In this document: positions 2,808 through 34,373 of the stretch, in pieces
Layout of the letters: every line of letters starts with the position of its first letter
Position numbering within the stretch: position 1 is the first letter of the stretch
Assembly: GCA_021683455.1 (NCBI GenBank)
Contig: GCA_021683455.1_3051.1
DNA: 64,000 bases
Source: a phage
Reading direction: 5' to 3' (one strand)
The notes under the pieces: model-generated
What the model saw: only the letters and a program-made list of their open reading frames with translations
Told to the model about the DNA's origin: nothing
Database searches by the model: none
Program-made: the position numbers and the translations under genes

Positions 2808-3220
2808 TATTTTCCAGCCTCAAATGCTCGCATGTCTTGAATATGCTTAATAGCAAATCCACGTGATTTAATAGCATCAAGAGCTCCGCTACAGAAATCC
2901 AATAAAATCCCCCAATATTGTAACGAGGTATCAACCTTTAAAACATCCTTATCAGCTGATAGAACTGTTTTCATTTCTGATTTCTCGTAACGATCCATAC
3001 TAAATTCATCACCATCTCCTCGTCCCGAGTAGTAATCTAATTTAGCTTTAAGAGCAACTTTTTTCTGTGCTTCAATTCTAAGCATTTCCTTTTTAATACT
3101 TGAATGCTTATTAAGCCATTTACTATATAACATCACATTATTAGCTGCTTCATACTGTAATTTAGTCGAATCTATAAACACATCTTTCTTCAATTCTTCT
3201 TGAAGATCTTCTAATCTCAT
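2807..3220 (-). CDS. uvsY: UvsY recombination mediator
   Basis: 137-aa ORF MRLEDLQEELKKDVFIDSTKLQYEAANN..; matches T4 UvsY length and sequence as recalled. Confidence 0.9.
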   Translation of the reverse strand: MRLEDLQEELKKDVFIDSTKLQYEAANNVMLYSKWLNKHSSIKKEMLRIEAQKKVALKAKLDYYSGRGDGDEFSMDRYEKSEMKTVLSADKDVLKVDTSLQYWGILLDFCSGALDAIKSRGFAIKHIQDMRAFEAGK

Positions 3221-29122: not shown

Positions 29123-31387
29123 TCATAATTTACAGGATGAACAATCTTCAGCTTTTGGAGTTTCTATTTCATAATCATCAGTACCAGAACCATCACGGGT
29201 ATTATGATAATAGAAATTTTTTCCGCCAAAATACCAAAAATACAAAAGGTCATCAATCATTATTGACATTGGAACCTTTCCTTTTGGAAAAATCTGCGGG
29301 TCATAATATGTATTCGCCGAAGCTGATTGACAAACCCATTTCAGCATAATAGCTACCTGCGTAAGATAAGGTTTATTACCTTTCTTAGCTAATTTCCATG
29401 TATAATCATAGAGGTCTATGTTATGCTCAATATTGGGCACGACTTGATTAAAGGAGCCCTCTTTTGATTCTTTAACAGAGACTGGTCCACGTGGAGGCTC
29501 GATACCGTTTGTACTGTTAGAAACTTGGGAAGATGACTCACATGGCATAAGTGCTGATAATGTGCTATTACGGATGCCAAAGAGCTTAAGGTCTTCCCGC
29601 AGCGACGACCAGTCACAAACGTATTTTGGAGCTGCGATTTGGTCAATCTTTTTATTGTACCAGTCGATAGGTAATTCGCCTCGAGACCAACGAGTGTCTG
29701 AATAATATTCACAAGGTCCTTTTTCTTTGGCGAGTTTAATGGATGCTTTAATGAGTCCATACTGTAATCTCTCAAATAATTCATGTGTTAAATCGTTAGC
29801 ATCTTCATAAGAAGCAAAGTTACTTGCCAGCCAAGCTGCATAGTTAGTAACACCTACACCGAGGTTACGACGCTTTTTAGCTTTTTCTGCTTCAGGAACT
29901 GGATATCCTTGGTAATCCAAAAGATTATCGAGAGCACGAACTTGGACTTCTGCCAATTCATTAATTTTATCTTGGTCTTGCCAGTCAAAATTATCCAGTA
30001 CGAATGCAGAGAGAGTACACAATCCAATTTCAGCATCTGGACTATTCACATCATTTGTTGGAATAGCAATTTCACAACACAAGTTACTCTGACGAATAGG
30101 TGCCTTTTCACGAATAAACGGAGTATAGTTATTCGTATTATCAATGAACTGCACATAAATCCTTGCTGTTCCTGAGCGTTCAGTCATGAGCAATTCAAAT
30201 AGTTCACGGGCTTTAATACGCTTTTTACGAATATTAGGGTCTTTTTCTGCTGCTTCGTATAATTCACGGAAACGGTCTTGGTCTTTAAAATAAGAATAAT
30301 AAAGCTCGCCACCCATTTCATGCGGACTGAACAAAGTAATGTAATCGTTCTTTCCAAAACGTTCCATCATCAGGTCATTCAGCTGAACACCATAATCCAT
30401 ATGACGAATGCGGTTTTCTTCTACGCCTTTGTTATTTTTCAAAACAAGAAGATTTTCAACTTCCAAATGCCAAATAGGATAATAAGCAGTAGCAGCGCCG
30501 CCACGAATTCCACCCTGTGAGCATGATTTAACAGCAGTCTGAAAATGTTTCCAAAAAGGAATAACACCGGTATGGCGTACTTCACCCATGCCAATCTTAG
30601 AACCTTCGGCACGAATCATACCAACATTAATACCAATTCCAGCACGTTTGGAGATATATTCAACAATTGAAGCGGAAGCCTTATTGATAGACTTTAATGA
30701 ATCACCTGCCTCAATAACAACGCATGAACTAAACTGTCGAGTCGGAGTACGGCAACCAGCCATAATAGGAGTTGGCAGTGAAATCTGTCGAGTAGATACT
30801 GCTTCATAAAAACGGATAACATGTTTTAATCTATCAACAGGTTCATCTTGATGCAATGCCATTCCAATAGTCATAAATGCAAACTGTGGAGTTTCATAAA
30901 TTTGACCGGTGGTTTTATCTTTAACTAGATATTTTTCTTTTAATTGCATCGCCCCGGAATAAGTAAATTCCATATCCCGCTCGTGCTTAATTTTTGATTC
31001 TAAAAATGTAATTTCTTCTGCTGAATATTTTGACAATAATTCAGGGTCGTATTTACCTTCATTTACACAGTAAGAAATATGGTCAATAAATGAACGTGGT
31101 TCATACTGCCCATAAACATGCTTACGAAGAGCGAACATTAAACAACGTGCAGCTACATATTGATAATCAGGCTCTTCAACCGAAATAGAATTCGCAGCGG
31201 CCTTAATGACAATAGTCTGAATATCATCAGTTGTCATTCCATCACGGAGATAAGATTTAATATTTTCATATAATTCATAAGGATCGACTGATGTTCCTTC
31301 AGCTGCCCAAGATAAAACTTTAATAATTTTTTGTGGGTCAAAGCTCTGAGAAACACCACTACTTTTGATAACATTAATTAATTGCAT
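29123..31387 (-). CDS. nrdA: Ribonucleotide reductase large subunit
   Basis: 754-aa ORF (T4 NrdA length); only 51 bp separates it from nrdB. Confidence 0.95.
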   Translation of the reverse strand: MQLINVIKSSGVSQSFDPQKIIKVLSWAAEGTSVDPYELYENIKSYLRDGMTTDDIQTIVIKAAANSISVEEPDYQYVAARCLMFALRKHVYGQYEPRSFIDHISYCVNEGKYDPELLSKYSAEEITFLESKIKHERDMEFTYSGAMQLKEKYLVKDKTTGQIYETPQFAFMTIGMALHQDEPVDRLKHVIRFYEAVSTRQISLPTPIMAGCRTPTRQFSSCVVIEAGDSLKSINKASASIVEYISKRAGIGINVGMIRAEGSKIGMGEVRHTGVIPFWKHFQTAVKSCSQGGIRGGAATAYYPIWHLEVENLLVLKNNKGVEENRIRHMDYGVQLNDLMMERFGKNDYITLFSPHEMGGELYYSYFKDQDRFRELYEAAEKDPNIRKKRIKARELFELLMTERSGTARIYVQFIDNTNNYTPFIREKAPIRQSNLCCEIAIPTNDVNSPDAEIGLCTLSAFVLDNFDWQDQDKINELAEVQVRALDNLLDYQGYPVPEAEKAKKRRNLGVGVTNYAAWLASNFASYEDANDLTHELFERLQYGLIKASIKLAKEKGPCEYYSDTRWSRGELPIDWYNKKIDQIAAPKYVCDWSSLREDLKLFGIRNSTLSALMPCESSSQVSNSTNGIEPPRGPVSVKESKEGSFNQVVPNIEHNIDLYDYTWKLAKKGNKPYLTQVAIMLKWVCQSASANTYYDPQIFPKGKVPMSIMIDDLLYFWYFGGKNFYYHNTRDGSGTDDYEIETPKAEDCSSCKL

Positions 31388-31704: not shown

Positions 31705-31921
31705 ATTGTTCTTCCGTTAAAACAGTAATATCGTAGTAACAGTCAGAAGAAGTTTTAACTGTGGAAATTTTATTATCAAAATACTCACGAGTCATTTTAT
31801 GGGTATAATATTTTTTGCCATAAATGATAATAGGCTGATTTGGTCCTGGAACTTCTAACTCACTTGGATTAGGAAGTGTAAAAAGAACTACACCAGAAGT
31901 ATCCTTAAATCGTAAAATCAT
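31658..31921 (-). CDS. Hypothetical protein (87 aa; nrdA.2 position)
   Basis: Collinear ORF. Confidence 0.5.
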
Positions 31922-32778
31922 ATTGCCATTTTCCCTTTAATTGCCGGATGTGATTCATAATTTTCAAGGATAAAATCTTTCGGTTTCATGTATTCAGTTA
32001 ACCAGTAAAGCTGTGTTTTGGTGTCACAATTTTCAAACTCTATAGGCCAATCAATTTTAAGTTCGCACAGTTCTTTAGGCTCACGACGTAAAATTTCTTT
32101 ACATTGTTCTACGTGATTCATATAGATGTGAGTATTACCACCAGAAAATATCAAATCTCCTGGGATAAGATTACACATCTTAGCTACAATATGAACTAAC
32201 GTAGCATATGATGCAATATTAAATGGAAGACCGAGGAAAACATCTACCGAACGTTGATACCACTGCAAATCTAAATAGCCATTACGCACATTAAACTGAT
32301 AGAACATATGACAAGGTGGTAATGCCATATATTTAAGTTCAGCTGGATTCCACGCAGAAACAATTTGACGCCTATCATTTGGCAGTTTTTTAATACGATC
32401 AACAACTTCTATAATTTGGTCTACACCGCCAAAATCACGCCACTGTTTTCCATAAATTGGACCAAGTTCACCGCTATGGTATCCTAAATCTTTTGCTTGA
32501 TTTTCGTAATTTTCATCCCAGACTGTTTTGCCTTGAATTGATGAATCATGTTGAATTAATCGCAAATCATTGACATTTGTGCTTCCTGATAAAAACCATA
32601 TTAGCTCAGCAATGCATGCATTCCAGGCGAGCTTTTTAGTTGTTACTGCAGGAAAACCTTTAGTTAAATCCCAACGCAATTTAGTACCGAACAGAGCAAT
32701 TGTTCCTGTGCCCGTTCGGTCATCGGTTTCATAGCCATTTTCAAAAATGTCTTTAATTAAATCTTGGTATTGTTTCAT
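31918..32778 (-). CDS. td: Thymidylate synthase, intronless
   Basis: 286-aa contiguous [29 protein letters not shown]..; catalytic PPCH motif. Confidence 0.95.
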
Positions 32779-32823
32779 TTAGTACCTTATATAAATTATA
32801 ATACATTTTATGAAGCTAAATAA

Positions 32824-33171
32824 TCAATACGGTTTAGCAACAAATTTTCTCTCAATTTCAGGCGTGAAATATAATTCTTTACCACGTTTGGAAAAGCGAC
32901 CAATAATATGATAATTATTCTCATCAAACGTAATATTACCAATATCCATAGCTTTCAACCAAATATCGATATTTCTATCTAGCTTTATGTCAAAATTCCA
33001 ATACGGAGAACTATTACCGAAAATACTGCAAGCGGATTCAGTGAAACAACTGCTATAAATCTTGTCTTTAGGAACTACCAATTGATAGACGCCTTTAATA
33101 AACTGAGGACCCTGCCACTTTGGTTGTTTCTCATCTTTTTCTAATAGAATAGGGTAATAATTAAAATTCAT
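32824..33171 (-). CDS. Hypothetical protein (115 aa) between td and frd
   Basis: ORF filling the frd-td junction; no recognisable motif. Confidence 0.55.
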   Translation of the reverse strand: MNFNYYPILLEKDEKQPKWQGPQFIKGVYQLVVPKDKIYSSCFTESACSIFGNSSPYWNFDIKLDRNIDIWLKAMDIGNITFDENNYHIIGRFSKRGKELYFTPEIERKFVAKPY

Positions 33172-33190
33172 ATTTCCGCCACACGTTATT

Positions 33191-34013
<823 letters not shown>

Positions 34014-34029
<16 letters not shown>

Positions 34030-34373
34030 TGAAAAGAGTCATGAGCATATCCGCTAGCGTCAATCATTTTAACTAAAGTTACCATTCCTCTGTTAACTGC
34101 TTGCGCGATTTCATCAAAAACTTCGTCACTATCATCGTAAAGATCATTAAAAAGTTCTAGCACGTTCTTCTGAACTTTTAATTTACGGCCGACAATTTCG
34201 CCTACAGTAAATTCGTTTCCGCCAAATCCAGCGTAAAATGTAATTACACCCATTAACTGGCTTTCACGAGAATCTATGTCGTGTGATAAATTAATAAAAG
34301 CCGTCCCAGGCGCGGTTTTAAGTTGGCAACGAATTTTTACTTGGGTAATTCCAGTTATATGAATGTTAGACAT
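34014..34373 (-). CDS. Hypothetical protein (119 aa)
   Basis: Collinear ORF. Confidence 0.55.

Follow-up and report, generated by a model that had tools for sequence, protein, structure and literature searches.

A conserved small gene between frd and td of T4-like phages and its probable deletion from phage T4

In the 64,000-nt stretch of phage DNA analysed here (the window), a 115-aa open reading frame (orfA) separates the dihydrofolate reductase gene (frd) from the thymidylate synthase gene (td). We think it probable, for the explanation as a whole, that orfA is an ancestral frd-td gene, that T4 has lost it by deletion, and that its product, co-expressed with DHFR and thymidylate synthase, is a binding protein rather than an enzyme. 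The frd-td junction would be the long-standing home of the gene and probably held a tandem pair of paralogs, orfA-orfB, at the outset. Tequatroviruses such as the window phage and T2 have orfA only, and neither gene is present in T4 and a few relatives and, separately, in the genus Mosigvirus. In T4, a 416-bp deletion between two copies of TAAATGAAA would have fused the stop codon of frd with the start codon of td, and the textbook ATGA overlap would be its product.

The frd-td junction in the window and in T4

The ORF listing places orfA exactly where the original prediction had put it, between td and frd. The minus-strand genes of this region are nrdA (29123-31387), nrdA.1 (DUF4326), nrdA.2 (DUF5496), td, orfA and frd. 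The features of the junction are as follows.

31918-32778, minus strand: td (thymidylate synthase), 286 aa; uninterrupted, without the group I intron and without I-TevI
32773-32781, minus strand: downstream copy of the 9-bp direct repeat TAAATGAAA; includes the td start codon
32779-32823, minus strand: ORF-td spacer, 45 nt, with an AAGG ribosome-binding site for td
32824-33171, minus strand: orfA, 115-aa ORF with an ATG start; member of PHROG 1928; beta-rich and mildly basic (pI 8.5)
33172-33190, minus strand: frd-ORF spacer, 19 nt, AATAACGTGTGGCGGAAAT, read directly from the sequence
33189-33197, minus strand: upstream copy of the 9-bp direct repeat TAAATGAAA; includes the frd stop codon TGA
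33191-33772, minus strand: frd (dihydrofolate reductase), 193 aa; 97.4% identical to T4 Frd

The distance from frd to td in the window is 412 nt with the ORF inside, and the T4-type stop/start (ATGA) overlap is absent. The frd-ORF spacer contains a weak Shine-Dalgarno-like element (GGCGGA/GGA) located 4-9 nt upstream of the orfA ATG. A consensus scan of the ORF-td spacer finds a promoter-like (sigma-70-like) TTGATT-N18-TATTAT arrangement at 32795-32827 on the minus strand and a MotA-box-like TTAGCTTCA at 32811-32819 that is followed by TATAAT/TAATTT. If functional, these elements may give ORF-bearing phages a separate promoter for td. The entire ORF-td spacer is missing from T4, and 32 nt of it are missing from phage F2. 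HMM searches for orfA and orfB find no second orfA copy elsewhere in the window and no copy of orfB.

In T4 (NC_000866), the end of frd is at 145109 and the start of td at 145112. The two genes consequently share a 4-nt ATGA overlap with no ORF between them; the direct overlap is as the original prediction described it, and the ORF is absent from this junction in T4 itself. The two copies of TAAATGAAA in the window are 416 bp apart, which is the size of the indel relative to T4. On the coding strand, the window reads ...CAGTATA-TAAATGAAA-TAACGTGTGGCGGAAATATG-ORF at the end of frd and ORF-TGATTATTTAGCTTCATAAAATGTATTATAATTTATATAAGGTAC-TAAATGAAA-CAATACC... at the start of td. The T4 junction reads ...CAGTATA-TAAATGAAA-CAATACC..., which is the window sequence minus 416 bp. 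A five-way alignment places one clean 416-bp gap in T4 and RB69, with T4 junction flanks that are identical or nearly so to those of the window and T2. Deletion by recombination or slippage at short direct repeats is a well documented process in T4, and the gap and its flanking repeats bear its signature.

The repeat itself may have an ordinary origin. Outgroup phages have no frd-orfA spacer; the TGA of frd overlaps the orfA start (ATGAA...), and the ATGAAACAA of td overlaps the stop codon of the preceding gene. These stop/start overlaps are a plausible source of the TAAATGAAA microhomology without any target-site duplication.

Two further observations concern frd and its other neighbour. Escherichia phage F2 has an extra A (within 1170-1225) in the run ahead of the frd stop codon (TATAAAAATGA vs TATAAATGA). 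The stop codon is displaced as a result, which gives F2 an annotated frd with 12 additional codons and an 11-nt overlap with the ORF. The interval from frd to frd.1 is a mere 71-nt gap in T4, but in the window (33772-34373, minus strand) it contains two more ORFs: one of 85 aa with no Pfam match (33772-34029, minus strand) and one that encodes a 119-aa DUF7247 protein (34014-34373, minus strand). Other Tequatroviruses have a single 81-aa gene in this place instead, making it another variable slot with T4 as the reduced form.

Distribution, duplication and age of the gene

The gene is already known, since it is catalogued in hundreds of genomes as a hypothetical protein belonging to PHROG 1928 (hmmscan E = 6.6e-36, residues 4-110 against profile positions 2-124 of 126). 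Our literature search found no mention of the frd-td junction ORF, RB32ORF229c or phrog_1928. A tblastn search with orfA matches 589 of 50,697 phage records. More than 90% identity is seen in 363 of these, all from T-even-type phages of Escherichia, Shigella, Salmonella, Yersinia and Citrobacter, including T2, RB14, RB32, RB10, AR1, wV7 and PP01. The 226 records with less than 60% identity are from phages of Klebsiella, Enterobacter, Pectobacterium, Serratia, Salmonella, Citrobacter, Kosakonia and others. Among 1.84 billion representative proteins, a search recovered only 20 genuine clusters, all of standalone proteins with 95-116 aa. Two long profile matches considered as larger relatives (P0021 and P0024) are spurious, being repetitive reverse-transcriptase-like fragments. 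orfA belongs to a small family restricted to T4-like (Tevenvirinae) phages.

At least seven other T4-like lineages have diverged homologs (28-62% identity) between frd and td, and in all nine lineages whose gene context was inspected the homolog lies directly after frd and before td. The order is frd-A-td in Klebsiella phage K65_evo3 and frd-A-B-td in PM2 (Mosugukvirus), Melville (Gelderlandvirus), ZX14 (Kanagawavirus) and Merlin (Moonvirus). A gene for 69 aa is added in frd-A-B-69aa-td of P545 (Marfavirus) and of an uncultured 32-kb contig; the orfA proteins of this contig and the window share 62% identity. In all, two uncultured T4-like contigs have a homolog at the junction. The second gene, orfB, encodes about 115 aa between orfA and td and is a paralog of orfA (hhalign probability 98.9%, E = 3.9e-17). 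Both share an N-terminal QxxW, an HG(I/F)Y and a C-terminal GRFxKxGxEI motif. The 129 records in which orfB was found include, judged by organism name, no Escherichia phage, whether Tequatrovirus or other.

The overlap arrangement is rarer within the genus. A 40-bp T4 probe across the junction, with either side too short to seed alone, detects the T4-type overlap in at least 32 records (T4 and its laboratory derivatives, RB55, RB59, e11/2, HY03, SG1, JEP6, G28, F1, FN, FL12, FL18 and G2133), and the equivalent RB69 probe detects at least 126 Mosigvirus-type records. These are minimum counts, since megablast seeds only on an exact word of 28 nt. In Tequatrovirus, phages with the ORF are roughly ten times as frequent as those in the T4 state. 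HMMs for orfA and orfB find no gene remnants in T4 or RB69. The original prediction interpreted the locus as an accessory insertion between two conserved genes. The junction is indeed a variable, accessory locus, but the synteny comparison reverses the polarity of the event: homologs are syntenic across genera, and the overlap is the minority state (32 records, compared to about 363 Tequatrovirus records that carry the gene).

Substitution rates point in the same direction. Among five alleles (window, AdolfPortmann, T2, EP01 and F2), orfA has dN/dS values of 0.015-0.05 with dS up to 0.97, and in the same five genomes dN/dS is 0.04-0.22 for frd and 0.03-0.20 for td. The constraint on orfA is therefore stronger than that on frd or td and reflects very strong purifying selection. 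The frd genes of T4 and the window differ by a dS of only 0.08. ORF-bearing F2 differs from the window by a dS of 0.45 in frd and 0.86-0.97 in the ORF. Because these F2 distances greatly exceed that of T4, the ORF was in the genus long before the T4 and window frd genes split, and the T4 state would consequently be secondary. The overlap is also both the minority form and the exact product expected of a deletion between the 9-bp repeats, which argues that T4 is the derived, deleted form. Across genera, identity to the window is 30-62% for orfA, 42-49% for frd and 70-79% for td. This divergence of orfA, within the range of frd, fits a long residence at the junction. The divergence of orfA has a weak rank correlation with that of frd and td (rho 0.35-0.45), which is compatible with vertical descent but falls short of proof.

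The T4-type junction may be linked to the td intron. Eight of the nine T4-type junction lineages examined have this intron, and FL12 has the deletion but no intron. I-TevI is full in T4, HY03, SG1 and JEP6 and is a truncated ORF in FL18, e11/2, G28 and F1. The intron is present in 11 of the 30 best-matching records of a frd-td DNA search (ORF state not checked record by record). Some 550 bp separate the junction from the site of intron insertion, and a sliding comparison of identity with T4 reveals no delimited tract. This pattern is suggestive of the T4 deletion hitch-hiking with the td intron by I-TevI co-conversion, in a count of lineages that are not independent.

Several other features of td were observed. 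In FL18, e11/2, G28 and F1 (about 2897-3065), the td intron holds a 168-nt I-TevI remnant that corresponds to a catalytic-domain fragment. The gene is full (738 nt) in HY03, SG1 and JEP6, and the remnants are degenerating homing endonucleases inside a retained intron. The frd-td junction of FL18 (PP400780.1, labelled Mosigvirus) is 100% identical to T4 over the 40-bp probe. Its frd and td are 91-100% identical to T4 per 150-bp window, and the gene 32 side is only 44-52% identical; FL18 is either a mosaic genome or a taxonomic mislabel. The td gene of the window is intronless, as in T2, so this phage would be a recipient of I-TevI intron homing in a mixed infection with T4. Finally, td contains a cassette-like hypervariable segment at about 31978-32058 (codons ~241-267). 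Residues 241-267 are almost wholly different among the window (which equals AdolfPortmann here), T2, FL12 and RB69, with the remainder nearly identical, a pattern suggestive of mosaic exchange that affects a surface segment close to the 3' end of td.

The orfA product and alternative readings

The original prediction saw no recognizable motif in the 115-aa protein, and profile searches agree. orfA has no Pfam match at E <= 10, and 23 family members give single noise matches only at E <= 1. There is no match in NCBIfam, and nothing better than E = 0.04 appears in a sequence search of the PDB. The family is mildly basic (pI 7.7-9.5), with a product of about 13 kDa. An AlphaFold2 model built from a 23-sequence alignment is a single domain with a mean pLDDT of 92.2 and a pTM of 0.85. 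It consists of strands at 6-12, 27-34, 38-40, 48-50, 62-64 and 80-82, a helix at 68-76 and a long hairpin (86-96/99-104). The only significant neighbours of this model in BFVD are other uncharacterised T4-like phage proteins, including PM2 orfB (Foldseek E = 8e-5), and the modelled fold appears to have no confident relative. The number of matching records (589), the low dN/dS and the high pLDDT place the ORF far beyond chance, and a spurious ORF is ruled out by its dN/dS, homologs and confident fold.

Residues L9, Q16, W19, G27, Y29, N79, G91, F93, K95, G97 and F102 are invariant or nearly so, and Q16, W19, G27, G91, K95 and G97 are strictly invariant in the family. They mark two conserved features, an N-terminal loop (Q16 and W19) and a C-terminal beta-hairpin with the motif GRFxKxG (G91, F93, K95 and G97). 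The family alignment has neither a conserved acidic/histidine set such as a nuclease requires nor another catalytic signature. We infer that the product is a non-enzymatic binding module with an OB-like topology whose partner may be nucleic acid or protein, and that the conserved aromatic and basic loop and hairpin would form its binding face. Its synthesis from the prereplicative frd-td unit would accompany that of DHFR and thymidylate synthase, with translational coupling in most genera, because the genes are co-oriented and their start and stop codons overlap in most genera. The gene may confer a fitness benefit in nature and would be dispensable in laboratory hosts, since T4 and RB69 grow without it.

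Several GenBank records of the BASEL collection name orfA a 'putative homing endonuclease'. The BASEL paper describes annotation by comparative genomics and mentions the presence or absence of 'putative homing endonucleases' (PMC8594841), and the label on orfA probably rests on presence or absence relative to reference genomes rather than on homology. Two stray labels, 'putative glucose-1-phosphate adenylyltransferase' and 'putative dihydrofolate reductase', have no support.

The label belongs with a reading in which a mobile or accessory cassette, possibly a free-standing homing endonuclease, was inserted into an ancestral frd/td overlap and the 9-bp repeat is its target-site duplication. The overlap in T4 and Mosigvirus, the direct repeat that flanks the unit and the relic-looking ATGAAA at the frd end could all be read this way, but we reject it as very unlikely indeed. 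TAAATGAAA is a common stop/start coupling context with 10 copies in the window, compared to 4.1 expected. orfA has no GIY-YIG, HNH, LAGLIDADG, PD-(D/E)xK or EDxHD domain or motif, no nuclease-family match in Pfam, NCBIfam or PADLOC, and no nuclease fold among the structural matches to its model. Its invariant residues (Q, W, G, G, K and G) do not make up an acidic or histidine catalytic set. To our knowledge, 115 aa is also too small for the known phage homing enzymes with DNA-binding domains. Instead of the sporadic distribution of a mobile element, we find one fixed locus in all lineages examined, syntenic across genera, with a divergence like that of frd and no second copy in the window. 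An unlikely alternative is that the common ancestor of Tequatrovirus and Mosigvirus had already lost orfA and orfB and so had the overlap, and that Tequatrovirus re-acquired orfA by recombination with another T4-like phage. This exchange would have used homologous td sequence at the right end and an illegitimate junction at the left end, where the repeat arose. T4 would then have lost orfA a second time or never received it. The RB69 and T4 overlap junctions are indeed identical in sequence (TATAAATGAAACAATACC), and the loose 19-nt and 45-nt spacers of Tequatrovirus are atypical given that the genes overlap in other genera. The ATGAAA kept at the frd end of ORF-bearing phages resembles the td start, but this relic (ATGAA) is equally derivable from the ancestral start of orfA, as in the outgroup frd-stop/orfA overlap. 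Similarly, orfA is 62% identical to the uncultured lineage and frd only 48%, but the slower evolution of orfA than frd within the genus could explain this difference alone. The high dS between the F2 allele and the others implies that orfA is old within the genus, contrary to a regain.

Other functions can be weighed against the same data. It is possible, if rather doubtful, that orfA acts in host takeover or against host defences, without a link to its neighbours, by binding a host protein or nucleic acid, and that it is needed on some hosts only. It is small, located in an early region, variably present and dispensable in laboratory phages; it diverges fast between genera that infect different hosts but is under tight constraint within a genus; and the paralog number varies among orfA only, orfA plus orfB and none. 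However, it has no similarity to the known anti-defence or defence families covered by the search (PADLOC gave one noise match only), and its fixed position is atypical of anti-defence islands. It seems improbable that orfA serves the thymidylate cycle or the dNTP-synthetase complex as a dedicated accessory subunit that bridges the two enzymes DHFR and thymidylate synthase or regulates them, for instance to channel dihydrofolate. This role is read from gene position and selection, namely the invariable location between frd and td with translational coupling in at least eight lineages and the very strong selection on orfA. Conserved order is the norm for T4-like prereplicative genes, however, and T4 and all Mosigvirus run the same pathway without orfA. 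We regard it as quite improbable that orfA and orfB represent a structurally new small binding domain that couples DHFR and thymidylate synthase, physically or through regulation, to each other, or both to the replication or dNTP-synthetase machinery. If this were true, it would explain the invariant position and extreme constraint, and T4 and Mosigvirus would have rewired frd and td into a translationally coupled overlap after the loss.

Comparison with known systems

If orfA is ancestral and was deleted from T4, then the textbook frd/td overlap is the scar of a deletion and represents a derived state rather than the original T-even gene order, and most T-even phages, classic T2 included, make an extra, tightly conserved protein from between the two enzyme genes. 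What is modestly new here is the 416-bp scar in T4 and the description of the gene as ancestral, tandemly duplicated in many genera, unusually constrained and predicted to adopt a fold without a confident relative. With no assigned function and no confident structural relative, orfA is a reasonable, non-urgent target for functional work. The locus is also a clear example of how the use of T4 as an annotation reference can cause ancestral genes to be mistaken for insertions.

orfA resembles I-TevI and the Seg and Mob endonucleases in its presence/absence polymorphism between conserved genes relative to T4 and in its BASEL label. It differs from them in having no GIY-YIG/HNH domain or fold, in being vertically syntenic rather than sporadic, and in being less than half as long as I-TevI (245 aa in T4). 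Because every testable defining feature failed, the 'homing endonuclease' label should be dropped, and it should not spread to further records. The orfA model has a weak resemblance to OB-fold domains (SSB, RPA14/32, RuvA domain I, HIN, Teb1 and S1), a fold defined by a closed beta-barrel of five strands in which a helix connects strands 3 and 4, and by superposition on known OB domains.

The closest counterparts are in other phages. RB32ORF229c, ar1_242 and their equivalents in T2, RB14, wV7 and PP01 are the same gene, 96-99% identical and in the same place between frd and td, and we note no difference between PHROG 1928 and the window ORF, neither of which has an assigned function. The orfB proteins of PM2, Melville, Merlin, ZX14 and P545 are homologous to orfA in fold and motifs but are only 22-31% identical to it and have an additional insert after the first strand. 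The frd/td junction of T4 has flanking genes nearly identical to those of the window, with identical bases on both sides of the junction, and lacks the 416-bp unit, which comprises the ORF and the promoter-like spacer. The td gene is translationally coupled to frd in T4, whereas that of the window comes with a ribosome-binding site of its own and possibly a promoter.
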